From the IMG/VR virus record IMGVR_UViG_2833096052_000002, positions 38,750 to 102,749 of that record: a DNA stretch of 64,000 nucleotides. One strand, 5' to 3'. A program made the position numbers and the translations under genes. Position 1 is the first letter of the stretch, and each line of letters opens with the position of its first letter. This DNA is from a virus. Taxonomy: Duplodnaviria; Heunggongvirae; Uroviricota; Caudoviricetes. The notes beneath the pieces are model-generated. The model saw nothing but the letters and a program-made list of their open reading frames with translations, was not told the origin of the DNA and searched no databases. Below, piece after piece: positions 3,389 through 35,285 of the stretch.

Positions 3389-3712
3389 TTATCTTCTACA
3401 TCTCACACTTCCACCAGCATCTATATCACCTGATACGTTACCACAAGTTACAGAACCACCTGCGTCTACATCTCCTTTGACATCCCCACTGACTTCACAA
3501 CTACCACCGCAATTAATACTTCCTGAATTGCCGTGAACTTCTACTGAACCACTGCAATCAATTTTATTTACATCTCCTTCGATGACAACTTTAATATTAT
3601 CACTGCCACATTTCTGAATAGTCTTGTCATCCACAATTGCATTTCCATTATTGATGACTACATTACTTCCTGAGCAAGTGATAGTTTTGACATTAATCGT
3701 AATTCTGTTCAT
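3389..3712 (-). CDS. Gly/Val repeat beta-helix protein, bactofilin-like
   Basis: tandem short repeats GxVxGxVxxGGSV (e.g. SGDVKGDVDAGGSVTCGNVSGDIDAGGSV) resembling bactofilin/DUF583 repeats. Confidence 0.35.
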   Translation of the reverse strand: MNRITINVKTITCSGSNVVINNGNAIVDDKTIQKCGSDNIKVVIEGDVNKIDCSGSVEVHGNSGSINCGGSCEVSGDVKGDVDAGGSVTCGNVSGDIDAGGSVRCRR

Positions 3713-3740
3713 ATTTTTATCCTTTCCTTATATTTACTCT

Positions 3741-4070
3741 CTATTCAATCTTGACGTTCGCCAATCTTTTATGACTTAAAACATTTAGTGTATCTTCAAT
3801 ACCTTCATAATAAGCAGACTGTTTATCAACATCGTGGTAATTTCTTGCCTTATCAAATACCTCTTTTATGTACTTCTCTTCATCTTTCTTATCTATGGAT
3901 AATCGCTTGATTTTATCAATGCAATCATTACATATATCTAAGCTGTTAAATAACTTATTCCAAATTCGACAGCCATTAATGTATCTTTTAGCAATTCCTG
4001 TAATATCAAGTTCAAAACCAGGAATTCTATTTCCACAAATATCACACACTCGATAGTTTACTTTTGACAC
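3741..4070 (-). CDS. zinc-ribbon protein
   Basis: CDICGN...CNDC cysteine pairs. Confidence 0.4.
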   Translation of the reverse strand: MSKVNYRVCDICGNRIPGFELDITGIAKRYINGCRIWNKLFNSLDICNDCIDKIKRLSIDKKDEEKYIKEVFDKARNYHDVDKQSAYYEGIEDTLNVLSHKRLANVKIE

Positions 4071-4394: not shown

Positions 4395-4742
4395 TCAACC
4401 TATAACAACAATTAATCCTTCTAAATCATTATTCTCCAATAGTTCTTCTAACAATGTTTCGTTATCGGTCATCGACTTTTGCATTTTTAGAATCTCATCT
4501 TTTGTATAATACAAAATAATCCAATCCCAACCATAAGTATCATCTGAACAATACTCCTTATAAAAGTCAGAGTCAGTATCTATTGTCCATGCTTCGATAT
4601 TCTTATAATTTTTATCCCATTTGACTGCACATTTATGACCTAATCTGTCAAATTCAGTGAAGATAAATGGCATTCCTGCATATTTCCCATCGTTAATTTT
4701 CTTACCTGTTTTCGGTGAATAAAAATTATAATAAACCCCCAT
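4395..4742 (-). CDS. hypothetical protein (115 aa)
   Basis: ORF track; start abuts stop of upstream gene. Confidence 0.4.
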   Translation of the reverse strand: MGVYYNFYSPKTGKKINDGKYAGMPFIFTEFDRLGHKCAVKWDKNYKNIEAWTIDTDSDFYKEYCSDDTYGWDWIILYYTKDEILKMQKSMTDNETLLEELLENNDLEGLIVVIG

Positions 4743-5249
4743 TTACTCAACCTCCCTCAAAATCTCTTTAGGGCAATAAATAATCTTCTTGCCTGCTTTC
4801 TGTGTTTTACGAATTGTTGACCAAACACCACCTGATTTATTACCATCCCAAATTGCAAGAAGTACATCACAATGATCAACCATATATTGATCTCTTACAT
4901 TATCACAACCTTTATAGAATTCATCTGATAATTCAACCCATTCACTTGCTTTCAATTTTAAAAATTTATAATATTTGTGTGATGAGTTATAGTTTTTACA
5001 AGGAAGAATACAATGTAATTTAATACTATTTATATAATTCATTGATACTCCTGTAATAGCAAATGCAATATCGCTTCCTGAAGCCATTCCTGTATATAAA
5101 TCAAGTAGCTCATTATTATCTCTACAAGTCTTTATAAAATTACTCAATTCATCTATAATCCAATGCTGAATTGGAATCCATTTTTCATCTGTTTCATCTT
5201 CTGGTAATCCTAATCTCTGAGGTCTATGACCTGTTAATGCTACTCTCAT
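4743..5249 (-). CDS. SLOG-superfamily protein, DUF1273 / YoqJ-like
   Basis: N-terminus MRVALTGHRPQ... matches the DUF1273 'GHRP' signature (SPbeta YoqJ family). Confidence 0.55.
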   Translation of the reverse strand: MRVALTGHRPQRLGLPEDETDEKWIPIQHWIIDELSNFIKTCRDNNELLDLYTGMASGSDIAFAITGVSMNYINSIKLHCILPCKNYNSSHKYYKFLKLKASEWVELSDEFYKGCDNVRDQYMVDHCDVLLAIWDGNKSGGVWSTIRKTQKAGKKIIYCPKEILREVE

Positions 5250-5259
5250 ATTCTCTCCT

Positions 5260-5661
5260 TTAATCAGTTAATATCAAATGCATATACTGTCCTACATGAC
5301 TGCCAAACTCTTCTTTTAAATCGTGACCACCAATCACAAGTTCATCAATATAAAACCCTGTGATTGTCCATTCAGAATATCCAGTATAATGCCCTTGTGT
5401 TAGTAGATTTCCTGTAAGCATATAACTGTCAAAGTTCATCTGTGCTTCTTCTAAGGTACATTTTTCATCAGAAAACCAACAGCATAGATTCGCATTTGAA
5501 ATCATTGTGATTTTCTCACCAAGTCCTTTGTTTATATATGCATAATTGAAATAATTCATAATAGATTCTGTTATTGGTTTATAGTAATCATCAATTTCTT
5601 TAGCTAATCCTAAATTTCCTTCGCTATTACGTCCTATCCATCCTTGTAATATTAATTCCAT
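5260..5661 (-). CDS. hypothetical protein (133 aa)
   Basis: ORF track; RBS GAGGTG 6 nt upstream of ATG. Confidence 0.4.
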   Translation of the reverse strand: MELILQGWIGRNSEGNLGLAKEIDDYYKPITESIMNYFNYAYINKGLGEKITMISNANLCCWFSDEKCTLEEAQMNFDSYMLTGNLLTQGHYTGYSEWTITGFYIDELVIGGHDLKEEFGSHVGQYMHLILTD

Positions 5662-5773
5662 TTTTCACCTCACACTTAATTATTCTCCATTTAATTTTCA
5701 CAATCTAATGAAAGACGGCTTTATTGTTAAATTTGACACCCCAAAAGCCTTATTTTTAGGCACTTTTTGAAGT

Positions 5774-5968
5774 TCAATTTTTCTCAATTTTATATTTAAA
5801 CGACAATGGGCAGCCGAAACCTAATTCGCCACCCAAACATGGATAGTCATTCTCATCACCAGTTATAAAACTGCAACCATATTCACGATACCCAGTGTCG
5901 CTTTCATAGTATGTCGTTTCACAGTAATCACAATTTTCATAATTGTTTTCGTAGATTTCTTCTTCCAT
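5774..5968 (-). CDS. small acidic Cys-containing protein
   Basis: ORF track. Confidence 0.3.
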   Translation of the reverse strand: MEEEIYENNYENCDYCETTYYESDTGYREYGCSFITGDENDYPCLGGELGFGCPLSFKYKIEKN

Positions 5969-5971
5969 AGG

Positions 5972-6559
5972 CTATACCTGCTTGTCTGCAATGCACTTAA
6001 TATTATTCTCTATCTGTCTGTAAGTTTCATTTGTACCAAGAATATTAAGCACTGCATTTGATAACATGCTCTTCGTTGAATTATCAAAAGTCTCTTTCAT
6101 CGTCTTATTAACCTGTTTACGAATATCATCCATGAATTTATCAAGATCTTTTTTAATCATGTCATCAAAATCAAACTGTCTGTTGATATATTCCTCAAAT
6201 GATACATTTTCAAAATCATCATTATATGAACTTGTGTGTCCTTTCTTCTTAGCTCTAAGCTTTTTAGAATCAAGTCTTTCTTTTAATTCCTTCTTAATAT
6301 ACTGTTCTACTGTATATTCCTTTTCTTCTGTATCGTCCCAATAATCTCCACCAACTTTGATTTTGGTATTTGCTATGTATTCATCAACAAAACGCTGAAA
6401 ATTCTCAGATACCTCATCTGCAATTACTTTCTTAGAAAGATCGTCTGCCACCTTTCTAACAGTTCCTTCAATCTGTTCTTTAACAATATTCTCAATGTTT
6501 TTCTCCATTGTTGTCTGAACAAGTGTTTCTAAGTTTTCCATATCAATCGTTACTTTCAT
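5972..6559 (-). CDS. hypothetical acidic/charged protein (195 aa), TAG stop
   Basis: ORF track. Confidence 0.45.
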   Translation of the reverse strand: MKVTIDMENLETLVQTTMEKNIENIVKEQIEGTVRKVADDLSKKVIADEVSENFQRFVDEYIANTKIKVGGDYWDDTEEKEYTVEQYIKKELKERLDSKKLRAKKKGHTSSYNDDFENVSFEEYINRQFDFDDMIKKDLDKFMDDIRKQVNKTMKETFDNSTKSMLSNAVLNILGTNETYRQIENNIKCIADKQV

Positions 6560-6811
6560 ATAATCATTCTCCTTTTCTTAAAATGAAATGCGAGTTCATT
6601 GCTTATTATATTCTGTCCAAATAAACAAAATAATCAGCCTTATAATGGATATCATCTATGTATTTATCGAAATTTTTCTTAACATACCAAGCATAAGGAC
6701 TAATCCCATTATTCATTTGTTCTGATAATTCATATGCTTTTCTCTGATGTTCATTAGCTTCATTTTGCATAGATATTTTTTGAGAATCCCATATAAGATT
6801 TTGAATTGAAT

Positions 6812-6994
6812 CTACACACTTCTATACATCTCAGACTCTTTTATGTATTCTCTTATCACTTTTGTCATTTTGAGAATATTGTCTTTTAATATCGGCTCAT
6901 TGCTAAGTTCATATGGATATAGGATTAAAACTCTAGTATCAGTACATCCCATTGGTATTAATTCCTGTACACAAAACTTTTGTTTTTCTACCAA
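6812..6994 (-). CDS. small hypothetical protein, TTG start with GGAGG 7 nt upstream
   Basis: ORF track plus RBS spacing. Confidence 0.3.
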   Translation of the reverse strand: MVEKQKFCVQELIPMGCTDTRVLILYPYELSNEPILKDNILKMTKVIREYIKESEMYRSV

Positions 6995-7012
6995 ATAATC
7001 ACCTCCAAGTAT

Positions 7013-7744
7013 TTATTCTCTTATCTCAAATAACTTTTCTACTGCTTTTTCACCTGTAACTCTATCTGACTTCTGCAACACTTTACGTTCTTTCTGCCAA
7101 ATACATTTAAAATCATCAGGCATATTATATTCACTTATTAACACTATATTATTCTCTGAAAGTTTACGAAGAAAATCGTAAAAAGAATCGTAGTCAATTG
7201 ACTGTTTAGAATACTGTTTTGTATCTTTGTAAGGTGGATCAAAATAAAATACGCAGTTTTTATAATCTGAGAAATTCTGATAATCACAGCACATAAATTC
7301 AATATCATTTAAATTCGGTGCTTGTTCCTTGAAATTATTTAATCTCTCATTATAAATGCTTCTGCCACCCTTTGAATCTCTACCATAGCCCCCATCAAAG
7401 TATCTGCCACCATAGCTTGCCATATATCCAATCAATGCAATATATTCTGGTGAATACTTATGAGTTTCAAGTTTTCTATCTTCTCTGACCTCTGCGTAAT
7501 GCTCAAATGTACATAATTCAGGTGCAATAGATAAGCTGTTGTCTGTCTAAGCATATTTCAACAAAGCAATCAACTCTTCATTAATATCTGCTCCAATTCT
7601 CTTATCACATTTAATTTTATCAATAAGATTAGCTCCGCCACACATAGGTTCTATGTAAGTTTTAATATTATTATCATCAATATACTTCTGAATAATTGGC
7701 ACTAAAAATTTTGCCAACCTGTTTTTACTTCCTTGATATACCAT
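7013..7744 (-). pseudogene. dam: Dam-type DNA adenine methyltransferase interrupted by one in-frame TAG (at 7547..7549)
   Basis: N-part (7547..7744) carries YQGSK and EPMCGGANL (motif X/I). C-part (7013..7435) carries FYFDPPY (motif IV). Both are in the same frame, and the 37 codons between them are open with a single TAG separating them. Confidence 0.65.
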
Positions 7745-7812
7745 TTAATTACTTGGAGTAAGGAATTCCTTCTTGTGTACACGAACCTCGTCTCCTTTCA
7801 TTATTTTTATTT

Positions 7813-8019
7813 TTAATAAAATGCTTCCGACATTGAATCTCCAAGTCTTACAAGATTCTCTACTTCCTTATCAGACATAGAATTAATTTCTTCGGTCGAA
7901 AAAGTCTCTTTAATTGCAAAATATGAATTATACCAATTTTCATCACATCCCATACTGTTTCTCGCTGTGGTCAATACTGGTTTCTTAATATATTCTAATA
8001 ATTTTTCTTTCTCAGTCAT
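7813..8019 (-). CDS. hypothetical protein (68 aa)
   Basis: ORF track. Confidence 0.3.
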   Translation of the reverse strand: MTEKEKLLEYIKKPVLTTARNSMGCDENWYNSYFAIKETFSTEEINSMSDKEVENLVRLGDSMSEAFY

Positions 8020-8047
8020 TACATGCTCCTTTCAATGTATTATTCTC

Positions 8048-8488
8048 TTAATAGATTTCTGTCCATTCACTAATTTCTACTTTATTATCAGGATAGCCAG
8101 ATAAACTCCATTCATTGTCGTTATATACTACTTTCCACATAGCATTTTCTCCATGTGGATTACCTTTAATTTTGCCATAATATAATCCTGAACATAGTGG
8201 TAATTCTTCTTCTGTTTTTCTCCAAATTGGCTTTTCATATACTTTATTAATATCGTCTACTGCTTTTGCCAAACCTGTCATTATATTTGTAAAATATTTA
8301 TCCTCTGTTTCAAGCATAGAATCAAAATAACTCTTCATAATGTTTAAGAGATTTTTTGTAAACTTTTCAGATGTATCATTCATTCCAAGTATGTAATCAC
8401 GATTAATCTTAAAATCAATTCCAAGTCCAATAAATGCTCCCACACAAAGTCCTAATAATCCAATTAATACTGTTAAATAAATATCCAT
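8048..8488 (-). CDS. membrane-anchored protein
   Basis: N-terminal hydrophobic helix MDIYLTVLIGLLGLCVGAFIGLGI. Confidence 0.4.
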   Translation of the reverse strand: MDIYLTVLIGLLGLCVGAFIGLGIDFKINRDYILGMNDTSEKFTKNLLNIMKSYFDSMLETEDKYFTNIMTGLAKAVDDINKVYEKPIWRKTEEELPLCSGLYYGKIKGNPHGENAMWKVVYNDNEWSLSGYPDNKVEISEWTEIY

Positions 8489-8541
8489 ATTTGACCTCTC
8501 TTTCTTATCATCCGAAGGAATCTTCGGCTTACTGTTACTTT

Positions 8542-8952
8542 TTAATATTCAATATTACTTAAAAACTCTTCCAAAGTAACAACATCTTCATTATATTCAG
8601 AACCATCTTCTCTTTTAAACCATTTACCACCATCAATATGAACACCTATCATTACATTAATATTATCTAAGTTTGCTTCTATAATATCTTTGTAAATTGT
8701 TGTAATAAGCTCAACACCTTTCTTATCAAATGTAATATCATCGCAACGCACATTTAAAAGATTATCATCTAAAAATTCAGTATAGACATCACAGTTATCA
8801 TAATCAAAAACTTTATCATATAATGTTTCTTCCAATTCTTCACTATATTCATCTAATTCGTCTTCATCGCTAATATTTACTATTTCAATTGCAATTAATA
8901 ATTCCGCTTCTGTATTATCCTTTAGCTCAATTCCCTTAAATTTCATATTCAA
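8542..8952 (-). CDS. acidic hypothetical protein
   Basis: ORF track; very acidic composition. Confidence 0.4.
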   Translation of the reverse strand: MNMKFKGIELKDNTEAELLIAIEIVNISDEDELDEYSEELEETLYDKVFDYDNCDVYTEFLDDNLLNVRCDDITFDKKGVELITTIYKDIIEANLDNINVMIGVHIDGGKWFKREDGSEYNEDVVTLEEFLSNIEY

Positions 8953-9248
8953 TTATTCTCCTTTATTAATTCAAAATTTTACTCAATTTCTTCACAACTT
9001 CTTCGCAAAATCTATACAAACAAGTCTTCTTAAATGCTATTCTCAAATCATCAACAACTTGTCTATATTGCTGACATAATTCGTTGTCTATCATGTTATT
9101 CTCCGAATATTCATTATGTTATGCCCACTTACACCATATAAAGGGTTCGAACCTAGTACAGCCCCACTGACACATAAATCACCAACTAGTATCCACATTT
9201 ATGTCGTTGTTAATCTGAATTGAACAGCCCTACAATAATGAATCATCA

Positions 9249-9530
9249 CTAATCAATATCAGCAATGCTTTCTACAAAACAGTTATAATAGATATATCTC
9301 TTGCCATTGAAATCAAATTTGACATATCCTCCATCATTTGTATCAATATCAATCTTGCCCTCATATGTTGCAAGTTCTTTACCATCTGCCGTATATACAG
9401 TAATTGTTCTCTGCATACCACCATTTATATCACTTTTCATATCTGTTACCATTCTGTCCCATGACGCACATCCAGTCATTCCAAAACATAATGTCAATCC
9501 TAATACAACTGCTAAAATTTTCTTCTTCAT
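9249..9530 (-). CDS. small lipoprotein
   Basis: signal peptide MKKKILAVVLGLTLCFGMTGC with lipobox-like Cys. Confidence 0.5.
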   Translation of the reverse strand: MKKKILAVVLGLTLCFGMTGCASWDRMVTDMKSDINGGMQRTITVYTADGKELATYEGKIDIDTNDGGYVKFDFNGKRYIYYNCFVESIADID

Positions 9531-9690
9531 ATGGTTTATTCCTTCTCCTTCAATACAAGAATTGCTTTATAGTATCTACTATTACATGAACTGGATTCTA
9601 CTTTGTATCCATCATCTAAATAATCATTCATTGCATTTTCAAAATCATTGCTGTTTTCCATTTCTAAAATTACACAATTCTTCATATAAT

Positions 9691-10329
9691 TTATTCTCCT
9701 AATTCTTTCAGTGCATTAACAAGTTCAGAAAGTCTTGGGTTCTCAGGATGCTCTTTTGCCATCTTTTCATATAAAGCAATATTATTCATCTTTTCAATCT
9801 CAGACTTTAACTCTTTCTCAATAGAAGCTTTCTGCTTTGCAATTTCCTTCTGACGATTTTCCTCATCAATTCTTGCATTATACGCATTCATATTAACAAC
9901 TCCAACGACCTGTGCCGTTACGCACTTGCCATATGCTTCTACTGATCTTACTTCTTTTAAAATTCCAAGGACTCTATTATCTTTTCCTCTTGCATTTACA
10001 ATCACATATAACGGATGTTTTGTATCGTACTTAACAATTTCATTCATATCTTCATCGTATAAAGCAAATCCATAATTCTTCTTATTGTAATCATCTACCA
10101 AATTTACAATCGCCACTTTATTAAATCCTGTCATTTTATTCTCCTCACTTTTAACTTTTTCTACTGATAAAACGTTATATCCTTGTTTTCTATTCTTTAA
10201 TTGAACCATAACATATTTCTGTGTACCTACATTATATGTATCTATAACAAATCCAGTTTGTCCCCTACTATTACAAGAACTTTTTATTATCACTTTATCA
10301 TTTATCTGAATATTCCTCATAGGCTGCAC
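9691..10329 (-). CDS. hypothetical protein (212 aa)
   Basis: ORF track. Confidence 0.45.
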   Translation of the reverse strand: MQPMRNIQINDKVIIKSSCNSRGQTGFVIDTYNVGTQKYVMVQLKNRKQGYNVLSVEKVKSEENKMTGFNKVAIVNLVDDYNKKNYGFALYDEDMNEIVKYDTKHPLYVIVNARGKDNRVLGILKEVRSVEAYGKCVTAQVVGVVNMNAYNARIDEENRQKEIAKQKASIEKELKSEIEKMNNIALYEKMAKEHPENPRLSELVNALKELGE

Positions 10330-10341
10330 CTCCTATTATTT

Positions 10342-10878
10342 TTATTTTCCTAACTGTTCTAAGAACTCATTGCCACAATCACAAAATTCTCTAATCATAG
10401 ACTTCATTAATCCCCATGACATACCAGAATGTCCCTGATTTTTCATAATTTCAATTCCATCTTGGATAGATTTTTCTTTAACAGTTTTGATAATATCTAA
10501 GCACTGACCAAGTTCCATTCCTCTGTATAGATCATTAAGTCGAATAGGAACACATTTATCCCACATATTCCATTTATCTTTAGATAAAACCTTATGACCT
10601 TCTTCTATCCAATATTTTGATAATTCAGGGATTTTTCTTTTATGTTCTTCCTCTTCACGAATTAATCTTTGACGACTTTCTTCTTGTTCTTTATTAAATT
10701 CGTCAAAAGTTTTACCTATACAAAGCATATAAGCATCATCTAAAGACATATCAGATGTTAGTTTATTTTCATTGAATTCACCGCAATATTTATTTCCATC
10801 CTTTGCTCTTTCGTGTAATTCTTTTACAGCTCGTTCAATAGTCCAACCGCAACAAAAATTAATCTCTCTATATTCCAT
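10342..10878 (-). CDS. hypothetical protein (178 aa)
   Basis: ORF track. Confidence 0.45.
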   Translation of the reverse strand: MEYREINFCCGWTIERAVKELHERAKDGNKYCGEFNENKLTSDMSLDDAYMLCIGKTFDEFNKEQEESRQRLIREEEEHKRKIPELSKYWIEEGHKVLSKDKWNMWDKCVPIRLNDLYRGMELGQCLDIIKTVKEKSIQDGIEIMKNQGHSGMSWGLMKSMIREFCDCGNEFLEQLGK

Positions 10879-11399: not shown

Positions 11400-12140
11400 T
11401 TACATTTGATACACAAAACTTGGCATTGGCTGTAATTTAAACAGATTTTTCTCATGCATTGAATCAATTTTAGCTTTTACTTTCTTACTTGGCTCAATTC
11501 CATCTCTGATATATGCATCTAATTCAGCATAAGTAAATCCAAGGTTATCTTCATCTGTCTTGCCACAAAGACCATCAGTAGGTGTCTTATCAACTAATTC
11601 TGATGGAAGCCCTAATTCACGACCAATAGCTTTAACCTCTGTTACTGTAAGCTGAGATAACGGACTAAAATCACCAGCAGCGTCACCATATCTTGTGGCG
11701 TAACCCACCCAATCTTCTGAAAGATTACACGTATTTGCAACTCGACCATTCATAGACTGACTGACTGCATATAAAGTTGTCATTCTGATACGTGCAGGAA
11801 GATTTGTGGCAGTCTGTTCAGAAATATCATATCCATTAAAAGGAAGATTATTTAATACACCACATACTGCATCTTTGATATTCACCTCAAAATTTCTGAT
11901 ATCTAAAAATTCAACAAGTTTTCTAGCCATATCAATATCCGACTGTTCTCCATTCGGCATAAGTACACCAATTACTCTATCTTTTCCAAGAGCTTCTACA
12001 CACAGAGCAGCTACAACACTTGAGTCCTTGCCGCCTGAGATACCCACAACCGCCATACAGTCTTTACCGTTCTTCTCGAAGAAATCCTTAATCCACTGAA
12101 CGCAATCATTAGTTACTTTTTTTACATCAAAATTACTCAT
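11400..12140 (-). CDS. nadE: NH3-dependent NAD+ synthetase
   Basis: PP-loop VVGISGGKDSS; downstream ARIRMTTLYA...ANTCNLSEDWVGYATRYGD aligns with NadE consensus. Confidence 0.85.
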   Translation of the reverse strand: MSNFDVKKVTNDCVQWIKDFFEKNGKDCMAVVGISGGKDSSVVAALCVEALGKDRVIGVLMPNGEQSDIDMARKLVEFLDIRNFEVNIKDAVCGVLNNLPFNGYDISEQTATNLPARIRMTTLYAVSQSMNGRVANTCNLSEDWVGYATRYGDAAGDFSPLSQLTVTEVKAIGRELGLPSELVDKTPTDGLCGKTDEDNLGFTYAELDAYIRDGIEPSKKVKAKIDSMHEKNLFKLQPMPSFVYQM

Positions 12141-12546
12141 GTTTAATCTCCTCTCTAACTCTCATAAGAATTTTTCCTAAATTGTTTTCTCCAACACCAT
12201 TCACAGTTCCCCAAATTTTATCACCCCAAGTATTACCTTCTTCGAGATGCTGATTATCAGTCTCAAGTAACTTTGCTTTGAGCTTTAAATTTTGAGTAAA
12301 TTTCGCTTTTACAATTTCGTACATAACGTTGTACTTCACATCTTCCCAATCAGATCGAAGCTGAACTCTTCTACCAAGTTTCTTTGCAGATGATGGATCT
12401 AAATTCGTGAAACATTCTCTATCTGAAAAAGTTTTTGCTGATTGAAAAGCGGCTTCATTATTCAAATATGTAAGTCCTTCATATGTAACAGGAGAAGAAT
12501 AAAAGTTGCTTAAAAAATAATATTTACCTCTAAATTCATTTATCAT
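12133..12546 (-). CDS. NADAR (DUF1768/YbiA-like) domain protein
   Basis: YFLSNFYSSPV...EAAFQSAKT...WG...GxNxLGKILMRVREE matches NADAR family signature. Confidence 0.75.
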   Translation of the reverse strand: MINEFRGKYYFLSNFYSSPVTYEGLTYLNNEAAFQSAKTFSDRECFTNLDPSSAKKLGRRVQLRSDWEDVKYNVMYEIVKAKFTQNLKLKAKLLETDNQHLEEGNTWGDKIWGTVNGVGENNLGKILMRVREEIKHE

Positions 12547-13004
12547 CCTTTGTCAAGCCTCCATAATTCAACATTGCAATCATAAAAAATATTCTCTATC
12601 ATTTGATGTACTTCCTCCCAATTTGCACCGCCACGAACACATCCAATTTTATATGGCATTGCAATACTCATATTTTCTAAAACTGCATATGATTTCAAAT
12701 TTTCAAAACATTTTCTTAAAGCATCAATATCTGTATACTGTTTTCCGTCATAGCCATATGATTTTTGTGCAAATAAATTTGCATATATTCTTGCGTCAAT
12801 ATTAGACTGAAAATATCTAACAGAACCCAATAATTGTTCAGGTGTATTAATCGAACAAAAACTATGATAATCTTTATATACTTGCACATCATAATCACGG
12901 ATTGCTTTTGCAACACCAGAATTAAAAGCACCTTTGCAATTAACCTGGTGTGCAATAATATCAGTGTTCGAAGTGAGCAAGTCTCCATCAATAATTTTAA
13001 TCAT
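12543..13004 (-). CDS. Macro domain (ADP-ribose binding/hydrolase) protein
   Basis: DIIAHQVNCKGAFNSGVAKAI resembles macro-domain nucleotide-binding motif; start overlaps upstream stop (TAATG). Confidence 0.6.
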   Translation of the reverse strand: MIKIIDGDLLTSNTDIIAHQVNCKGAFNSGVAKAIRDYDVQVYKDYHSFCSINTPEQLLGSVRYFQSNIDARIYANLFAQKSYGYDGKQYTDIDALRKCFENLKSYAVLENMSIAMPYKIGCVRGGANWEEVHQMIENIFYDCNVELWRLDKG

Positions 13005-14464
13005 TACTTACCTCCGTACATTCTGTTTCTGATATCCGCAAATGTATCTTCTCTTACTAATTCTCCATCTTTAAATACGGTAGTAAGTAAACTGTTATCA
13101 CTTATTTCAAGTAACTGATCTTGACATTTTAATTCACCGTTATCATCGAATACTCTACAACATCCTTTATGAGATTTCTTTAAGTGACTTGTATCTGTCT
13201 TAGGATCTTTAAAAATCATTAGCTTCTTACCATCAATTACTCCATATGTAGCTTTCATTGCAATGCCAAAAGTATCTCTTGTAACAACAATCATCTTGCC
13301 GTTTTCAACGATTGCAGTGAAGCAAAAAGCTCCTACACCATAAGCAATATTATTAGCTGCGAAACCACGTTTTTCTAATTCTTTCCAAATAGTTTCTACA
13401 TTAGAAAGTGTGCAACCATCACCATAAATAATACCGATATGCGGATCTAATACCTTATAACCTTTACCATTTACAGAACCACCAAAAATCTCCCATAACC
13501 TTTCAACTGTCTTAACTGAAATCTCTACAATATCACCACTATCAGGACGAATTAAGAGCTTTCCATTATGATTCATAATCTCTTCTTTACACTGTGGAAG
13601 AATATTATTTACCATATTCCAATAATCATAAGTATCTGAAACCATACTAAATGATGTATTTGGATATAACTCTGTTAAAAGTCTCTTAACAAACGTAATC
13701 TCATCTCCATCAATTGAGAAATTAGCACCCATTACAGAATGCTCAGTTGAGACAGCACCGATTCCAATACCATTATTCTTACAATCGGCATTATAATATC
13801 TATCAATATAATTAATTGCTGGAATTGTAGATGTCTTATTAAATGAAAGCAACCATGATGCTGAACATCTTGTAGCTTCATCCATACAAGACATTCCTCT
13901 CATACCAAAATCTGCACAAGCCATATTTCCAGGCAACCCGTCTGTTGTCTTGTTATACCAATAATCTGCAATCTCACGATACATATGACCGATAGTTGCA
14001 TGACAACAAGGTTTCCATAATTCTACCTGAAGAATACATTCGATCCACTGAACAAGCCAAGCAAATTTATCATCCGTATTTGTAATCTCAATACAAGGAA
14101 CACCCATAGGAACAAGTGTGCCTTCTGGCAATGCTCTAATCTCAAGTGGTAAATATCCTAATCTGTGAAGCTCTACAATTTTATCTAAATCATAGTTGTC
14201 TCTACCAATCTGTACGTCCATCGAATCTGTATAAAGAGTTAGCATCTCATCTTCCGATAAATCGAAGAAATTTTTCTGAAAATATCCCATTAAATATTCT
14301 TTGATAAATGCCTGTAATCCAAAGAAAACCATTTCATTTTGATTCTCTAACATTGATTTTCGAGGCACCCAATACGATACTAACTTAGTTAATCCCTTCG
14401 GATACATACGATCATGACACTGTTTATAAGTATCTGATAATAATAAAGCCATTGTGTTATCCAT
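13004..14464 (-). CDS. nicotinamide phosphoribosyltransferase homolog (NAMPT/NadV-like; candidate Namat of NARP1)
   Basis: About 486-aa NAMPT-family sequence (LLSDTYKQCH..., GMRGMS..., GIIYGDG...). Probable start is the ATG at 14464 with GGAGG 9 nt upstream; the ORF-track start at 14506 is an upstream extension. Confidence 0.75.
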   Translation of the reverse strand: MDNTMALLLSDTYKQCHDRMYPKGLTKLVSYWVPRKSMLENQNEMVFFGLQAFIKEYLMGYFQKNFFDLSEDEMLTLYTDSMDVQIGRDNYDLDKIVELHRLGYLPLEIRALPEGTLVPMGVPCIEITNTDDKFAWLVQWIECILQVELWKPCCHATIGHMYREIADYWYNKTTDGLPGNMACADFGMRGMSCMDEATRCSASWLLSFNKTSTIPAINYIDRYYNADCKNNGIGIGAVSTEHSVMGANFSIDGDEITFVKRLLTELYPNTSFSMVSDTYDYWNMVNNILPQCKEEIMNHNGKLLIRPDSGDIVEISVKTVERLWEIFGGSVNGKGYKVLDPHIGIIYGDGCTLSNVETIWKELEKRGFAANNIAYGVGAFCFTAIVENGKMIVVTRDTFGIAMKATYGVIDGKKLMIFKDPKTDTSHLKKSHKGCCRVFDDNGELKCQDQLLEISDNSLLTTVFKDGELVREDTFADIRNRMYGGK

Positions 14465-14468
14465 AATT

Positions 14469-15305
14469 TTAAACCTCCATAACTGTAATTTTTTCATGAT
14501 TACCATTAAACAAACTGTTTGTAGTAAATAATCTGTTCACTGTATTATTCTCCAAAGACTTGATCAATGTTCCTTTTTCTTTATCAAGAATTGAATTCTC
14601 TGTATGAGTGGCATACGCATAAATCTCAGTTACACCATGTTTCTTCAATTCTTCTGCACTATAATAAAGTGAACCGCCATATGCGATAATATCATCAATC
14701 ATTAACACAGCTTTATCCTTCAAATCAATACCATTTGTTCTAATGTCTAATCCAAGGATTTTACCAGTCTTCCAATCTCTCTTCTTTTCACCATAACAAT
14801 ACGGCAACTCAGGGAATAAATCTGAATATCTCTTAGCTGCACCTGCATCTGGGAAATAAAGTACAAGATTTCTCATACCAATCTTTGAAATAGCTTTATC
14901 AACATACTCTTTTGGATTTTCTTTTACACAATTATTGAGTAATGCAGTAGAAACATCACTATGAGCATCTAAAACATAAACTGATGAAAATCCTAACCAA
15001 TTGATAAAATCGCAAAAATACTTCAGTGTGAATACTTCATCATCATTTTTTACTCTATCCATTCGTGCATTAGGAATATATGGAAGAGACAAATAATAAT
15101 CCACATTAGTAAAAAATCTTTCAAGATGTTTCCTTACTAACATCAGATAAAACATCTCATCGTTACTCTCATAAATCCATTCAATCCAAATGCAAGGAGA
15201 CCCATCATAAGAGTCTTCCTCAATGTTGTTTATATCAATATTTACTCTTGGTGTTCCATCTGGGAACTTGTTGATTGTTACAATTTCATTATTAATTTTA
15301 ATCAT
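14469..15305 (-). CDS. ribose-phosphate pyrophosphokinase homolog (PRS-like; candidate Adps of NARP1)
   Basis: PRPP-binding loop VLMIDDIIAYGGSL and LDAHSD region typical of PRPP synthetase family; 278 aa, shorter than canonical Prs. Confidence 0.7.
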   Translation of the reverse strand: MIKINNEIVTINKFPDGTPRVNIDINNIEEDSYDGSPCIWIEWIYESNDEMFYLMLVRKHLERFFTNVDYYLSLPYIPNARMDRVKNDDEVFTLKYFCDFINWLGFSSVYVLDAHSDVSTALLNNCVKENPKEYVDKAISKIGMRNLVLYFPDAGAAKRYSDLFPELPYCYGEKKRDWKTGKILGLDIRTNGIDLKDKAVLMIDDIIAYGGSLYYSAEELKKHGVTEIYAYATHTENSILDKEKGTLIKSLENNTVNRLFTTNSLFNGNHEKITVMEV

Positions 15306-15308
15306 GTT

Positions 15309-15821
15309 TTACTCTCCAATCACTTCGATCTGACACATCTTCATAGTTGCTAATGCAGCCTTGTGGGTATCAGGTGTGACACCTGCGCAACAGCTTGCAT
15401 CTACTGTAATATCAATCTCAGGATAATTTGCCCTGATAATAAGTGCATTTGAAACCACACAGATGTCGGTGCATAATCCGCAAACCTCAACACTTTCAAA
15501 TCCTAAATCCTTCCAGTTTAACCAACCGAATGTAGGCTTATCAATCAGAATATCGTTCTCAATATCAAAATCTAACTTATCGGAAATCTGCCAACCAATA
15601 GTATTCTTTACACAGTGAGTAACAGGAAGATGCTTACCTTCATATGTTTCTAAATAATTCTCAGGATGTGTGTCTCTTGTAAAAATTACCTGCTTACCAG
15701 CATCCTTATACTCCTTAATTTTCTTTGCTACATTTGATACAATCGCCTGTGCTTCCTTTGTACCAAGTGTTCCATCAATAAAATCATTCTGCATGTCTAC
15801 AACAATTAATGTTTCTCTCAT
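15309..15821 (-). CDS. isochorismatase-family cysteine hydrolase, nicotinamidase (PncA)-like
   Basis: LIVVDMQNDF start motif and catalytic-Cys segment VCGLCTDICV. Confidence 0.7.
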   Translation of the reverse strand: MRETLIVVDMQNDFIDGTLGTKEAQAIVSNVAKKIKEYKDAGKQVIFTRDTHPENYLETYEGKHLPVTHCVKNTIGWQISDKLDFDIENDILIDKPTFGWLNWKDLGFESVEVCGLCTDICVVSNALIIRANYPEIDITVDASCCAGVTPDTHKAALATMKMCQIEVIGE

Positions 15822-15939
15822 TTTGTTACCTCTTTTCTTTATTTTTATATGTATTTATTCTCTGAAAACTCAGAAGAAAAAAATATTTCATTTTACTTTT
15901 TTGGATAATTTGGCTGATCAGCCGTGAATAGAATTGCTT

Positions 15940-16128
15940 CTATATTAGATTATTCTCTACTCGAAACTTCTTTAATTCATCTTGAATCATCTTTTGTATA
16001 TCTTCTTTATCAAAAGATATATTTGCTACTGGAATAACATTTGCATTTGGATTAACTTCACCAACAATAGCTTCATCAAATACTTTTATAAACATTTCTG
16101 CAATTTCTTTTTCATAATTGCCACACAA
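15940..16128 (-). CDS. small hypothetical protein
   Basis: ORF track. Confidence 0.3.
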   Translation of the reverse strand: MCGNYEKEIAEMFIKVFDEAIVGEVNPNANVIPVANISFDKEDIQKMIQDELKKFRVENNLI

Positions 16129-16245
16129 TCCACTACAATCTATATCTGCAATTACTCTTGAAAAAAATCTTTGAACTTATCATCTATAAAATCTCGCTCG
16201 TATTCTCTTGGTATATCAATTGTTAATTTCACCATTTCACCTCAC

Positions 16246-16452
16246 TTATTCTCTGTATGGTTCAGGTAACGGCATCCAAGCTCTCATGCCTCCATTGATT
16301 CTTCCCCAATACCATGTCCCATCATAGTATTGCCTTTGCACTTTTGTTACCATTCCTCGATTTGTGGTAACAAGTACATTTATCACTTTCTTACCTTCAT
16401 ATCTTTTATCATCTTCTGGCATTTGCCCTTCGATACATTTAATCCATTCCAA
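16246..16452 (-). CDS. small Trp-rich hypothetical protein
   Basis: ORF track. Confidence 0.35.
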   Translation of the reverse strand: MEWIKCIEGQMPEDDKRYEGKKVINVLVTTNRGMVTKVQRQYYDGTWYWGRINGGMRAWMPLPEPYRE

Positions 16453-16465
16453 TTATTCTTTCACC

Positions 16466-17206
16466 TCACATCCATTTATCAATTTCACTAAACACATTAC
16501 CTAATGAATTAACAATCATCAAATCAGTTTCACCGTATAACAACACTTGAATTTTCTCTTTATTGATAACAACCAAATGTCTACCACTAAAATATGAAAT
16601 ATAATGAGCTGCTGGATAAACTTTTAATGAAGTGCCACCAATAATCAACATTTCAGCATCTCGAATAGCTCTGATTGCTCCATTTACAGCTTCATTAGGA
16701 AGATTCTCTCCGTATAAAGTCACATCAGGTCTAATCAGCCCACCACATTCACACTTTGGAACAGCATCTTTAGTGTTAAATAAGAAATCAGAATGATATT
16801 TCATCTTACACTTACTACAATAATTTCTCTGAGTAGTTCCATGAATCTCAAAGACATTCTTACTACCAGCTTTCTGATGAAGTCCATCAATGTTCTGTGT
16901 TACAATAGCTTTCAACTTGCCTACTTCTTCCATCTTAGCAAGTACCTTATGAGTAATATTTGGCTCAATATTTCTTGTATCCATCTTCTGCCGATAGAAC
17001 TCATAGAATACTTTCGGATTGTTGTATAAGCATTCTCGACTCAAAAGATACTCTGGCTCGTATCTATCAAACTGAACGTCATGCTGATTATATAATCCAT
17101 CCTTTGAACGGAAGTCAGGAATACCACTTTCAGTTGACACACCTGCTCCACCAAAAAATACAATATTGTTCGATTCTTCTATATATTCTCTTAATTTATC
17201 GTACAT
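16466..17206 (-). CDS. Sir2-family NAD+-dependent deacylase/ADP-ribosyltransferase
   Basis: GAGVSTESGIPDFRS, TQNIDGLH, HG and CSKC...CECGG zinc ribbon. Confidence 0.8.
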   Translation of the reverse strand: MYDKLREYIEESNNIVFFGGAGVSTESGIPDFRSKDGLYNQHDVQFDRYEPEYLLSRECLYNNPKVFYEFYRQKMDTRNIEPNITHKVLAKMEEVGKLKAIVTQNIDGLHQKAGSKNVFEIHGTTQRNYCSKCKMKYHSDFLFNTKDAVPKCECGGLIRPDVTLYGENLPNEAVNGAIRAIRDAEMLIIGGTSLKVYPAAHYISYFSGRHLVVINKEKIQVLLYGETDLMIVNSLGNVFSEIDKWM

Positions 17207-17212
17207 ATTACC

Positions 17213-17470
17213 TCACTCTATCATTTCAACTTTAATCCTAAATTTTGTTGTTTCTATATGTTCGTTTTCTTGATAAGGACAATTATAATCAAAGTGCTGA
17301 TGTTTAACAGTCGCAATCAAATGAGTATCATTACTAGAAACAAATTCCGTATCTGTTTCATAAGTATCTTCAGAACCATCACCAAGTTTAGAATCTGCAC
17401 AATATATCTGATTTGCGTCTAATGCATCTTGAATAATTCTGTAAATGTCTCCTGTATTATACATAGTCAC
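17213..17470 (-). CDS. small hypothetical protein
   Basis: ORF track. Confidence 0.35.
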   Translation of the reverse strand: MTMYNTGDIYRIIQDALDANQIYCADSKLGDGSEDTYETDTEFVSSNDTHLIATVKHQHFDYNCPYQENEHIETTKFRIKVEMIE

Positions 17471-17474
17471 TCCT

Positions 17475-24922: not shown

Positions 24923-25672
24923 TTACTTATTACCTCTCTGTCTCTTCATATCATCAAGGATCTGACGAGCATTGCGCTCTCTTTCAGAATTAGCAAGTCT
25001 TCTCTCATTTGCCTGTGCGCTAGAATCATATGCAATTCTACTTCCTTCTGCACGTTCTCTTGTCTTTCTTGCTCCTTCACGAACTCTTTCAAGCATTCTA
25101 TCGCTCTCATTATTCGTATTAAGACTATCCATACTCTGATGAAGTTCGATAATCTGACTATCGGCTTCCATCTGAAAAAGAACCTGTTCCTTTTCCTCTT
25201 TAAGTTTCTGCAATTCTTCGGCTGCCTGATCACGAATGTCTTTCTGGTGAGCCTGTGCTTCTTTCATCTCTTCGATTGTATCTTTTAGTACATTAATCTT
25301 ATTCTCCAAAGTAGACTTCTTCATTGCATACTGCATTGCTTCATTTTCTTTATTTTCATCAAGACAAGCATTAATCTGCTGTGTAACACGCATAATATCT
25401 TTATTTGCCTGATATAAATCCTTTTCTGCTGTATCACGCTTTCCTGAAATTTCAGCATATGTAGCAGATGCCTTGTTATAAAAATCTTCCTTTTCTCTAA
25501 TGGCTGCGTTGTAATAATCTCTAGCACCTTCTGGTGTCTGTGCATCCTGACGCATTACTTCATCCGTTCTTCCTTTAAACTTTACTCGAAGCTGTTTACC
25601 AAAAGGAGTAAAGAAAAGAATCAGTGCAATTAATACAATCGCCACAATTATAATAAACATAAAATTTGTCAT
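24923..25672 (-). CDS. membrane-anchored coiled-coil protein, PspA/IM30-like
   Basis: N-terminal TM (FMFIIIVAIVLIALILFF) then long charged coiled coil with PspA-like periodicity. Confidence 0.35.
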   Translation of the reverse strand: MTNFMFIIIVAIVLIALILFFTPFGKQLRVKFKGRTDEVMRQDAQTPEGARDYYNAAIREKEDFYNKASATYAEISGKRDTAEKDLYQANKDIMRVTQQINACLDENKENEAMQYAMKKSTLENKINVLKDTIEEMKEAQAHQKDIRDQAAEELQKLKEEKEQVLFQMEADSQIIELHQSMDSLNTNNESDRMLERVREGARKTRERAEGSRIAYDSSAQANERRLANSERERNARQILDDMKRQRGNK

Positions 25673-25681
25673 ACAATCCTC

Positions 25682-26263
25682 CTACTCTGCATCAATTCCA
25701 TACTGATTACATAGTGCCTTTAATCCACCGTTATAGCCACTTCCTACAGCCTTAAACTTCCATTCACCATTATGTTTATAAATTTCAGCTACGACTAACG
25801 CAGTCTCGGTAGAGAAGTCTTCACTTAAATCAAAACGAATAAGCTCCTCGCCTGTCTCTTCGTCTACTACACGCACATATGCGTTTCCAACCATACCGAA
25901 GTTCTGAAGTCTACTCTCAGCATCATAAATTGTGACCGTCACAGCAAGAGTCTCATAGTCTGATGGGATTTTATCAAGTTTAATCTTAATAACCTCATCA
26001 TCTCCATCTCCCTCACCTGTACGATTATCTCCCATATGCTTTACACTCTTTGAACTATGTTCAAGATTACCATAGAAAATGAAATCCTCATCCTTGCCAA
26101 CCTTGCCATTCTCTTTTGTCATAAACACAGAGGCATCGAGATCAAAATCTGCTTCTCCATCATAATGATTAATATCCCATCCAAGTCCAACAAGAATGTT
26201 TTTTAATGATGGTCTACCCTTTGTTAAATCTACTCTCTGTCCTTTACTTAACGAAACTGACAT
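25682..26263 (-). CDS. TerD-family protein (paralog 1)
   Basis: MSVSLSKGQRVDLTK...LGWD...DFDLDASVF...GDNRTGEGDGDDEVI. Confidence 0.8.
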   Translation of the reverse strand: MSVSLSKGQRVDLTKGRPSLKNILVGLGWDINHYDGEADFDLDASVFMTKENGKVGKDEDFIFYGNLEHSSKSVKHMGDNRTGEGDGDDEVIKIKLDKIPSDYETLAVTVTIYDAESRLQNFGMVGNAYVRVVDEETGEELIRFDLSEDFSTETALVVAEIYKHNGEWKFKAVGSGYNGGLKALCNQYGIDAE

Positions 26264-26275
26264 AATTAAATCCTC

Positions 26276-26851
26276 CTACTTGTATCTTCTTATTAATTCG
26301 CTAACACTTGAATCATTTGTTCCCTGACCGATAGCGTTAAATTTCCACTCTCCGTCTTTCTTATAAACCTCTGCAAATACCATTGCTGTCTTACCAGCAT
26401 AATCATCTGAAAGATTGTATTTACAAATTTCCTTACCAGTTGACTCATCAACAAGTCTAATGTACGCATTCTTGATAAGTCCAAAATCCTGCTTTCTTGA
26501 AGTGCAATCATAGATATTTACTACAAATACAATCTTCTCAACCTTATTTGTAATATTCGCAAGGTCAACTGTAATCTGCTCATCATCGCCGTCTCCATCT
26601 CCTGTGAGGTTGTCGCCATGATGATACACACATCTATCTTCTGCTGATCTGTCACCATAATAAACACATGTACGATACTTATCATCTTTTCCTAAAATAA
26701 TTGCTGAAGCATCGCAATCAATGTTTGGCTTAGAATTAAAAAATCCTTTCTTAACAGCATCCCATCCAAGTCCTACCATAATCTTTGTAAGACCACCTGC
26801 TACTTCCTTAGATAAATTAATTTTCTGTCCTTTGACTAAATTTACTGACAT
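26276..26851 (-). CDS. TerD-family protein (paralog 2)
   Basis: MSVNLVKGQKINLSK...GLGWD...GDNLTGDGDGDDEQI. Confidence 0.8.
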   Translation of the reverse strand: MSVNLVKGQKINLSKEVAGGLTKIMVGLGWDAVKKGFFNSKPNIDCDASAIILGKDDKYRTCVYYGDRSAEDRCVYHHGDNLTGDGDGDDEQITVDLANITNKVEKIVFVVNIYDCTSRKQDFGLIKNAYIRLVDESTGKEICKYNLSDDYAGKTAMVFAEVYKKDGEWKFNAIGQGTNDSSVSELIRRYK

Positions 26852-26869
26852 ATATATTCTCCTTCCACT

Positions 26870-27641: not shown

Positions 27642-27657
27642 ATTCTCATCTCCTCAA

Positions 27658-30606: not shown

Positions 30607-30632
30607 ATAACTCCGCTCCTCTCCTTTCTAAT

Positions 30633-33863: not shown

Positions 33864-35285
33864 TTATGCATTTGCCATCTTGTCAAAACTTCTTTTCATG
33901 AAGTCATAATTTACTTTCTGTGAAGGGCTAAATTTCTTTTGATTTTTGTATTTATTAATCCATTCCTCAAACTTGTCCTCATTCTCATTCTCACAAGCGT
34001 ATGCCATTAATGCTATTAAAGCTGTCTGACACTGTTGATAGATTGGAGCATCGACTTCAATTCCATTATGATCAAGGCAATAATCAACAAGGTCAGAATA
34101 AGTATTTACGTCCTCATCTGTTGCTTCTGGATTTGCGTTTTCTTGTACAAACGAGAGTGTTGATTCGTTGGAATTTTCAACCTCTAAAGTTCTTGATTTT
34201 ATTGTGTTTTTAAGGTCAAACATTTCCAACATAAGCGAAATATATGTATTTATCTTGTTTTGTATCAATTTTTTATCAGATGTACCAGGCTCTTTATCGA
34301 GCATGTCATAGCTCCATTTATCAACTATTTTGTCATGTAAATTGTTTACTAGCTCATCTAAAAACGTAGCAAATTTGCTATCTTCTAATCCCAACTTAGT
34401 GAATCTATGGAACACAGCAAACCAAACTGGGATATCTTTGAACACAAATAAGTTTTTGAATTTTTCTCCACAAACCTTTGCAATTCGATTTCCATATGTA
34501 TTAATTATGTTAAATTCTTCATCAGAAGAACTATCTTCAATAAACTCATTCCTGTCTTTTGGATTCTTTTTCCAATCATCTATATGGAATACGGTCATTA
34601 CAGAATTTGCAACTGTCTGCTCGTAAGTTCCATTTTTCCTCTTTGGACTTGAATATGTAACACAATTTTTAAAAAACTCATTGTTTGCAATGTTTTTAAT
34701 TTTTCTTGCATATGTAGGAATCCATGTAAGAGCTTTCTGGTTTGAACCCATACTCTTATTACGGTTATATCTGCGAACCAACTTGCTTATTTCTTGCATG
34801 GTACAATTTTGATGAATTACTATACGAATCTGATAATCATCAAATTTCTTTTTCAATTCATCAGGCAATTGCTCGTAAGTTTTATTCTTTATGTCAAACT
34901 CACAATTGTCCCAAAGAATACTTCCGTTCTCATCTTTAATAAGATGTCCCTTTTCATCTCTTCGCTTCTTCTGATACTGAATAACGCTATTCTCAAAAGA
35001 TTTAGTTGTTTTCCAGTTCATATGTCTGAATTTATTCAGAGCTGTTGTTCTCTGAATACCATCAACTATGTACTGTTGAGTTAAATTATCTCCAAGCTCT
35101 TCCTCACCAAGAATAATAGGAGGAATATAATCTTCATTAAGTACCGTATAGATTAGCTCGTTTATTGCTCCATTGTCCCAACAGAACATTCTCTGAACGT
35201 CCTGATTTTCTGAAATATCCTCACTATTTACACTCTTTAAATATGAAGATAATGCCATTGCTTGTTCTCTCACTTTTTTTGCCAT
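33864..35285 (-). CDS. DUF262 domain protein (GmrSD/DndB-type ParB-like NTPase/nuclease N-domain)
   Basis: QQYIVDGIQRTTAL = DGQQR signature of DUF262. Confidence 0.65.
   Translation of the reverse strand: MAKKVREQAMALSSYLKSVNSEDISENQDVQRMFCWDNGAINELIYTVLNEDYIPPIILGEEELGDNLTQQYIVDGIQRTTALNKFRHMNWKTTKSFENSVIQYQKKRRDEKGHLIKDENGSILWDNCEFDIKNKTYEQLPDELKKKFDDYQIRIVIHQNCTMQEISKLVRRYNRNKSMGSNQKALTWIPTYARKIKNIANNEFFKNCVTYSSPKRKNGTYEQTVANSVMTVFHIDDWKKNPKDRNEFIEDSSSDEEFNIINTYGNRIAKVCGEKFKNLFVFKDIPVWFAVFHRFTKLGLEDSKFATFLDELVNNLHDKIVDKWSYDMLDKEPGTSDKKLIQNKINTYISLMLEMFDLKNTIKSRTLEVENSNESTLSFVQENANPEATDEDVNTYSDLVDYCLDHNGIEVDAPIYQQCQTALIALMAYACENENEDKFEEWINKYKNQKKFSPSQKVNYDFMKRSFDKMANA

Follow-up and report, generated by a model that had tools for sequence, protein, structure and literature searches.

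We report a Dam-like DNA methyltransferase gene that appears to have been knocked out recently, by a single C-to-T transition turning a glutamine codon (CAG, Gln66) into an amber stop. The gene belongs to a large prophage that the gut bacterium Agathobacter rectalis carries, and lies on the minus strand of a 64,000-nucleotide stretch of Caudoviricetes DNA – IMG/VR virus record IMGVR_UViG_2833096052_000002, positions 38,750 to 102,749 – referred to here as the window. We put the probability at roughly 85% that this is a recent knock-out of an orphan methyltransferase, with no part played by read-through, suppression or recoding. On this account, one C-to-T transition at 7549 turned Gln66 into TAG, translation from the normal start should end after 65 residues, no active enzyme would be made and the methylation mark of the enzyme would be lost. 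The amber codon is one of many independent natural knock-outs of a frequently lost accessory gene.

A single amber codon interrupts an otherwise complete gene

The disrupted gene, its lesion and the two remaining open reading frames (ORFs) are located as follows.

7013..7744, minus strand: the whole disrupted gene, a D12-class N6-adenine DNA methyltransferase of 243 codons plus TAA with one interruption, identified by its translation, PF02086 and full-length homologues
7547..7549, minus strand: codon 66, an amber TAG that arose from CAG (Gln) through a single C-to-T transition at 7549
7547..7744, minus strand: the N-terminal remnant ORF, 65 amino acids, with YQGSK and the S-adenosylmethionine (AdoMet)-binding motif EPMCGGANL; NCBI RHI25682.1
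7013..7435, minus strand: the C-terminal remnant ORF, from a TTG at 7435, which holds the catalytic DPPY

A preliminary description, made from the sequence alone, had noted one in-frame TAG in a gene otherwise whole at about 243 amino acids. Translation of 7744..7013 confirmed that TAG at 7547..7549 is the sole internal stop, and the gene otherwise has 243 sense codons followed by TAA, matching homologues that run uninterrupted for about 243 amino acids. The motifs named in that description (YQGSK, EPMCGGANL and FYFDPPY) were all found in one common frame, with DPPY at 7229..7240 (minus strand) within the FYFDPPY of the C-terminal remnant. Its count of 37 open intervening codons is also exact: 37 codons separate the TAG from the earliest possible restart, the TTG at 7435. 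As the frame in the window is broken by a TAG at codon 66, the gene is a disrupted member of its family. NCBI lists the two pieces separately, as RHI25682.1 and RHI25681.1 (136 amino acids, beginning at an ATG at 7423), each named DNA adenine methylase.

Translation begun at the normal start codon should yield nothing but the 65-amino acid N-terminal fragment. This fragment has the AdoMet motif and lacks both the target-recognition region and DPPY, which suggests that the enzyme would be inactive and its methylation mark lost. The C-terminal remnant is without residues 66-103, among them nine invariant ones between C78 and A103; the missing invariant residues include C78, F80, E81, H82, Y83, V86, R87 and Y101.

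We also observed a 13-nucleotide imperfect inverted repeat (12 of 13 positions complementary), at 7003-7015 and 7746-7758, whose two arms enclose the complete methyltransferase gene and overlap the flanking ribosome-binding regions. It is probably a chance occurrence, and nine other pairs of like quality lie within the same 1.6 kb. A promoter and terminator scan around the gene found sites no more numerous than in shuffled sequence.

The gene encodes a Dam-like D12 enzyme

With Gln placed at codon 66, the translation matches PF02086 (D12 N6-adenine methyltransferase) at 61.1 bits against a cut-off of 22, over residues 3-188 and thus across the stop. It also matches PHROG 56, ‘DNA methyltransferase’ (E = 8.5e-39). 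About 2000 database homologues are uninterrupted proteins of ~243 amino acids and are homologous over their full length. The motifs follow the alpha-group order, with EPMCGGANL at residues 32-40 and DPPY at 169-172. D169, P170, P171 and Y172 are invariant in one homologue alignment and at least 90% conserved in another, and many residues C-terminal to the stop are invariant among homologues. Comparison with nine relatives gave nonsynonymous-to-synonymous polymorphism ratios (pN/pS) of 0.06-0.30 for the intact gene, pointing to purifying selection across the family.

The AF2 model of an intact, 98%-identical homologue (P0001, pLDDT 89) has a Dam-like fold. Its top 26 Foldseek matches in the PDB are to E. 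coli Dam, Mcbe1, DpnM and T4 Dam; the match to E. coli Dam (4rtn) has E = 1e-10 and a TM-score of ~0.6, and DpnM (2dpm) and T4 Dam (1yf3) are also matched. Identity to these solved enzymes, of which E. coli Dam, DpnM and T4 Dam are GATC enzymes, is 15-22%, and a sequence search against the PDB returned nothing at E <= 1. The profile for dam itself (NCBIfam TIGR00571) scored 45.1 bits, under its cut-off of 114.85. The label ‘Dam methyltransferase’ used in the preliminary description is therefore only partly justified: fold and Pfam family are Dam-like, but the TIGR00571 cut-off is failed. We call the protein a Dam-like D12 enzyme; ‘Dam’ in the GATC sense is unproven.

Family scans revealed no recognisable restriction enzyme next to the gene, which therefore looks like an orphan methyltransferase. 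It resembles the orphan D12-class alpha-group enzymes E. coli Dam, T4 Dam and DpnM in its membership of PF02086 and in its order of AdoMet motif, recognition region and C-terminal DPPY, and its intact 98%-identical homologue shares their fold. Unlike them, it is interrupted by a stop, is shorter at 243 amino acids, falls below the dam cut-off and is only 15-22% identical in sequence. Among 50,697 phage records, megablast of a 2-kb segment found no match, and all tblastn matches were below 60% identity, the best annotated being to Enterococcus phages at ~45%.

The TAG allele is recent and recurs in a second assembly

The window locus is 100% identical to contig QRKN01000001.1 (747 kb) of the A. 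rectalis assembly GCA_003471975.1 at NCBI. A human gut metagenome contig, L217, is 99.94% identical to the window across 6990 bp and differs at only four places: at 8603, at 4908, at 7549, where it has C rather than T, and at ~6822, where it has an extra A. L217 thus has CAG at codon 66, and its methyltransferase is uninterrupted and 100% identical to the repaired window protein. CAG and TAG stand on this near-identical background with only one direction of change evident. A sister contig, L001, is nearly identical over window positions 4500-10750; across the methyltransferase gene it is identical save for CAG at codon 66 and a 42-bp deletion of its own. These comparisons uphold the recent nonsense pseudogene that was one suggestion of the preliminary description.

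Codon 66 is also CAG in L002 and L003, and across the related loci scanned it is CAG in 41, CAA in one and TAG in three. L005 is one of the TAG loci; the other two, L004 and L216, are pieces of the contig to which the window itself belongs. The comparison with orthologues that had been proposed thus finds CAG in 41 of 42 other relatives and CAA in the remaining one. L005, from a separate run and assembly (Logan ERR10432884), is 99.93% identical to the window and carries both the TAG and a frameshift in the neighbouring gene. This recurrence rules out a simple sequencing error, another of the earlier suggestions. The NCBI contig is itself recorded in two samples.

Two contigs, L006 (738 nucleotides) and L007 (568 nucleotides), are uninformative about the allele. 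Both are MEGAHIT contigs, from different samples, that are ~97% identical to the window and end exactly one base before codon 66. Their shared end may be a coincidence, with the exact-product look-up selecting such ends, or could mark a branch in the assembly graph at codon 66.

A frameshift breaks the neighbouring gene in the same strain

The second lesion falls in the gene directly downstream.

6606..6994, minus strand: a conserved hypothetical gene, 129 amino acids in relatives, with a 1-nucleotide deletion at ~6822 (AGAAAG to AGAAG)

The frameshift leaves ORFs at 6812..6994 and 6606..6770. It is common to the window and L005, and the gene is intact in L217 and L001. Although the product has 258 homologues of ~128 amino acids, we found no Pfam, NCBIfam or PHROG family for it, using the precomputed domains of those homologues for Pfam and direct scans for NCBIfam and PHROGs. 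Its AF2 model (pLDDT 88) had no PDB fold match below E = 0.3. Within 20 kb around the methyltransferase gene, a comparison with L001 and L215 shows a difference in length for that gene and this neighbour alone.

TAG is a routine stop codon in this phage

Consistent with TAG acting as a stop, 27 of the 134 minus-strand ORFs in the window (20%) end in it. They include two TerD genes (26276..26851 and 25682..26263), as the preliminary description had pointed out, and the TAG often overlaps the ribosome-binding site of the next gene (TAGgagg..ATG). If TAG is taken as sense, coding density goes up from 90.9% (code 11) to 91.7%, a gain of 0.8% when estimated with a greedy ORF proxy rather than Prodigal; recoding is indicated by gains above 5-10% (bioRxiv 10.1101/2021.08.26.457843). 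The earlier view that the genome is not globally recoded therefore holds. We inspected every minus-strand ORF that merges across a TAG and found no other window gene with a homology-supported internal TAG. The second long merge, at 61535-62827, was rejected as a candidate; it consists of two genes, the downstream one with its own ATG.

ARAGORN and Rfam identified only two tRNAs in the window, both reading glutamine codons.

31435-31509, minus strand: first tRNA-Gln(UUG), divergent from the second copy
36764-36836, minus strand: second tRNA-Gln(UUG); its anticodon-arm sequence is shared by more than 118 viral contigs of various lengths

When the two tRNAs were searched for in IMG/VR viral contigs with a wild-card anticodon, all 126 matched copies kept TTG. 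The preliminary description had proposed a search for a tRNA with a CUA anticodon; ARAGORN found none in the window, in the 9.4 kb to the left of it or in related loci totalling 1.7 Mb, and UUA and UCA anticodons were likewise absent from those 9.4 kb and 1.7 Mb. The 130-nucleotide RNA segment that surrounds and follows the stop is no more stably folded than shuffled sequence (z = +0.99), and orthologues do not keep TAG at codon 66. The base directly 3′ of the TAG is A. An A after the stop favours amber suppression.

The window shares some properties with the code-15 gut phages (crAss-like, Lak, Garnet and Topaz; bioRxiv 10.1101/2021.08.26.457843; PMC9523058) – it too belongs to a low-GC gut phage with a standard-code host and has an in-frame TAG at a Gln position. 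Unlike those phages, it has one affected gene, TAG as a common terminator, no density gain, no suppressor tRNA that we could find and relatives with CAG.

Relatives carry many other null alleles

We observed further lesions of the same methyltransferase gene in related phages. Two sites in the window are relevant to them.

7370..7411, minus strand: a 42-bp stretch, lying between GGTGGCAGA direct repeats, that is deleted in frame in L001
7389..7393, minus strand: a G5 run (GGG GGC, Gly118-Gly119), found only in the window's sub-lineage and in frame here

The deletion in L001, which arose independently of the amber codon, takes out 14 conserved residues of the protein, GGRYFDGGYGRDSK. At the site of the G5 run, the sequence is GGTGGT or GGCGGT in most relatives, GGGGGC in the window, L215 and L217, and GGGGC in L064 and L287. 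Of the truncated products, P0123, P0124, P0126 and P0127 represent -1 (G4) alleles at the run and P0129 a +1 (G6) allele. The run is a slippage hot spot inside the gene, with G4 and G6 alleles on several long contigs. About ten different truncated methyltransferase products occur on long contigs. The null alleles assigned to individual loci are these.

Q177TAG: L019 and L230
Q63TAG with a frameshift: L072
Q19TAG with a frameshift: L274
E81TAA: L259
G5-to-G4 frameshift: L064 and L287
Frameshift at DPPY: L063
Frameshift near codon 203: L272

L064 and L358 are parts of one contig, IMGVR_UViG_3300045988_133402, which carries an in-frame stop in its NadE-like gene as well as the G4 frameshift; prophage decay or lower assembly quality may be the reason.

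We compared the frequency of mutational knock-outs with that in other genes of the same phages. The methyltransferase is broken in 5 of ~52 IMG/VR contigs (~9%) outside a sister clade that has an invertible segment, described below. Of two control genes of equal length, the SIR2-like gene is broken in 4 of 44 and the NadE-like gene in 1 of 80. Because its knock-out rate is like that of the SIR2-like gene, the methyltransferase behaves as a dispensable accessory gene. A comparison with flanking genes, whose variability among relatives makes them a poor control, gave 8 of 69 disrupted methyltransferases against 1 of 46 (p = 0.08, not significant). We rejected an apparent excess of methyltransferase knock-outs, which vanishes against the two equal-length controls once inverted-state loci are set aside. 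Positive selection for loss is not established by these sequence comparisons; the clustering of disruptive changes in near-identical sequence (L217 and L001) is suggestive, on few events. The methyltransferase is an accessory gene that is often lost in this phage family and, judged by pN/pS, under purifying selection when intact.

The amber allele belongs with the nonsense or frameshift pseudogenes of accessory (moron-like) prophage genes, from which it differs in nothing essential: like them, it shows a single recent lesion in a dispensable gene, an intact allele in near-identical genomes and a broken neighbour. Its allelic series, which includes G5 slippage, is unusually rich for such a gene.

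A sister clade carries an apparent inversion switch

In a sister clade (~62% protein identity, outside the window), the last 287 nucleotides of the gene, including DPPY, lie between perfect 16-nucleotide inverted repeats, AATATTTCTTTTATGT. One repeat, on the left, falls within the gene, and its partner on the right follows closely after the stop codon; an example is found in L071 at 3439-3757. The segment is collinear (ON) in eight IMG/VR loci (L052-L055 and L057-L060) and inverted (OFF) in eleven (L071 and L073-L082). Apart from the orientation of the segment, L057 (ON) and L081 (OFF) are 100% identical over the segment and a 1954-nucleotide left flank. The segments of L053 and L073 are likewise 100% identical but oppositely oriented, and the left flanks of these two loci are 97% identical. 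The gene has a pN/pS of ~0.1 in both of its parts, and ON-state proteins occur on at least 24 contigs. We saw no recombinase within 3 kb of the segment; a pair comprising Xis and a tyrosine integrase lies ~10 kb off. These sequences suggest an apparent invertible on/off switch of a phage methyltransferase. Such switches are known for bacterial genes (PMC10028968).

In all 19 of these loci (L052-L082, position 3001) the start codon is ATA rather than ATG, with a TAA three codons upstream. Gene callers begin the gene at an internal TTG, giving the 187-amino acid products P0165 and P0166, and the gene is still under purifying selection.

We looked for the sister-clade inverted repeats in the window's gene and found none. 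The OFF state in the window is a point mutation, and no notable inverted repeats flank the gene. The family as a whole resembles phasevarions and intragenic invertons with premature stops (PMC10028968; PMC11868660) in being heterogeneous for ON and OFF states, with G-run slippage alleles and the sister-clade inverton. Unlike those systems, the window has a lesion that is a point mutation, a G run of only 5 nucleotides and no inverton in its gene.

Prophage context of the gene

GC content is 30-37% throughout the window, and the minus strand carries most of the long ORFs by far. Close relatives of the methyltransferase are on IMG/VR viral contigs of ~145-165 kb. Because the window is phage-like throughout and has relatives on contigs of this size, we consider it to be a large prophage or phage-derived region in a cultured gut bacterium. 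A literature search returned nothing specific on an A. rectalis phage of this type, or on loss of a phage methyltransferase by nonsense mutation. Other notable features of the window are listed here.

11400-18863, minus strand: NAD salvage and turnover cluster, with NAD synthase, NADAR, NAMPT, a phosphoribosyltransferase, an isochorismatase/nicotinamidase-like protein and SIR2, then a CCA-adding enzyme
24923-32431, minus strand: stress-type cluster, with three TerD genes, a PspA-like gene, a P-type cation ATPase and an SPFH/Band 7 gene
33864..35285, minus strand: a 473-amino acid GmrSD_N/NsnA-like protein (Pfam GmrSD N-terminal domain at 28.3 bits, under the 33.2 cut-off; PADLOC NsnA at E = 4e-11)
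38341-39333, minus strand: tyrosine integrase (Phage_integrase, E = 1e-27), ~1.5 kb from the second tRNA and, like the two tRNA genes, in the middle of an otherwise uniform phage-like region

Going by its weak matches, the product of 33864..35285 is possibly a modification-dependent nuclease or defence protein. GATC occurs 91 times in the window against 235 expected (0.39). Across window positions 1-64000, several palindromic restriction-type sites, GATC among them, are strongly avoided: CCGG occurs 0 times (21.6 expected), GGCC 0 (30.8), CGCG 1 (16.6) and CTAG 31 (70).

Alternative explanations for the interrupted gene

The preliminary description had also raised a programmed amber codon, read through or suppressed, that holds the methyltransferase off until a suppressor is present; we weigh it together with recoding of TAG to Gln. 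The replaced Gln is the residue inserted in code-15 phages and the phage has two tRNA-Gln genes, but the anticodon is UUG in both genes and in all 126 matched copies, and no suppressor tRNA was found in any sequence examined. Use of TAG to end 20% of ORFs and a density gain of only 0.8% also speak against such a codon, as do the CAG of relatives and the lack both of RNA structure 3′ of the stop and of any other gene with a homology-supported internal TAG. The frameshift of the adjacent gene in the same strain fits decay rather than regulation, and the amber falls at a Gln position because that is simply what a CAG-to-TAG transition gives. We consider a programmed amber codon very improbable. 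A sequencing or assembly error in the isolate genome is if anything harder to credit: it would explain a single-base difference from relatives and a neighbouring frameshift in a short A-run, but both lesions are present in the separately assembled ERR10432884 (L005, 99.93%) and the NCBI contig was found in two samples. The least plausible account is a split enzyme in which the 65-amino acid N-terminal chain and a restarted C-terminal chain together form an active methyltransferase. Although both pieces stay open and NCBI names each of them DNA adenine methylase, a restart 37 codons downstream would drop the nine invariant residues from C78 to A103 and no Shine-Dalgarno-like sequence precedes it. 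A lesion only as old as 0.06% divergence would also have left no time for a split enzyme to adapt.

Some points weigh against a simple knock-out. A suppressor tRNA could in principle be encoded in the ~60% of the phage genome that the window does not cover; L005 may be either an independent host population or the same strain re-sequenced; and the loss of enzyme activity is deduced from what the 65-amino acid fragment lacks. In addition, the first three in-frame stops seen in relatives are all Gln-to-TAG changes, as TAG-to-Gln recoding would give. This pattern is expected from mutation alone, because 6 of the gene's 8 remaining Gln codons are CAG and transitions to a stop yield TAG in 7 of 10 possible cases; in relatives, those alleles are accompanied by frameshifts or by TAA or TGA stops.

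A different question is why the gene was lost. Selection may have favoured an OFF state of a contingency gene that is switched off time and again, and perhaps on again, with methylation sometimes harmful – for example, by exposing the phage or lysogen to a methylation-dependent (type IV) nuclease – and the amber and frameshift fixed as a result and not by drift. In its fuller and equally tentative form, the methyltransferase of ~150-kb Agathobacter/Lachnospiraceae phages would be a contingency locus under fluctuating selection, toggled differently from lineage to lineage – by inversion of the 3′ segment in one clade, by G5 slippage, and by recurrent CAG-to-TAG or other null mutations in that of the window – with the amber and the adjacent frameshift fixed in an A. 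rectalis lysogen in which methylation was costly. Selection of this kind shares the molecular event with the knock-out described above and differs in cause only; whether the loss was neutral or selected is what we infer, the mutation itself being observed. Consistent with selection, of the four differences that separate the window from L217 in 7 kb, two are disruptive and affect neighbouring genes, L001 has lost 14 conserved residues of the methyltransferase through an event of its own, and -1 and +1 slippage alleles occur at a lineage-specific G5 run. The reversible-looking inversion in the sister clade, with ON and OFF states on 100%-identical backgrounds and a pN/pS of ~0.1, points the same way, as do the GmrSD_N/NsnA-like protein at 33864..35285, with its weak matches, and the depletion of GATC to 0.39 of expectation. 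However, knock-outs of the methyltransferase (5 of ~52) are no commoner than those of the SIR2-like gene (4 of 44), though commoner than those of NadE (1 of 80), and the flanking-gene comparison reached only p = 0.08 (8 of 69 against 1 of 46). Moreover, an amber codon is no fast reversible switch, and no methylation-dependent nuclease of matching specificity was demonstrated here. Selection for loss is thus a doubtful, if possible, cause of the knock-out.

Implications

The event is real but ordinary; the many null alleles and the apparent inversion switch in relatives lift it slightly above the routine. For annotation, RHI25682.1 and RHI25681.1 are best read as the halves of one dead gene, and the amber codon here is no sign of an alternative genetic code. 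The locus provides a dated, population-supported case of the loss of an orphan phage methyltransferase in a lysogen of A. rectalis, a major butyrate-producing gut bacterium. The L217-type CAG allele and the window's TAG allele form a natural isogenic pair, which offers a route to the target motif and the role of phage adenine methylation. The sister-clade inverton is the more interesting lead – if true, it would mean that a phage carries a methyltransferase subject to phase variation.

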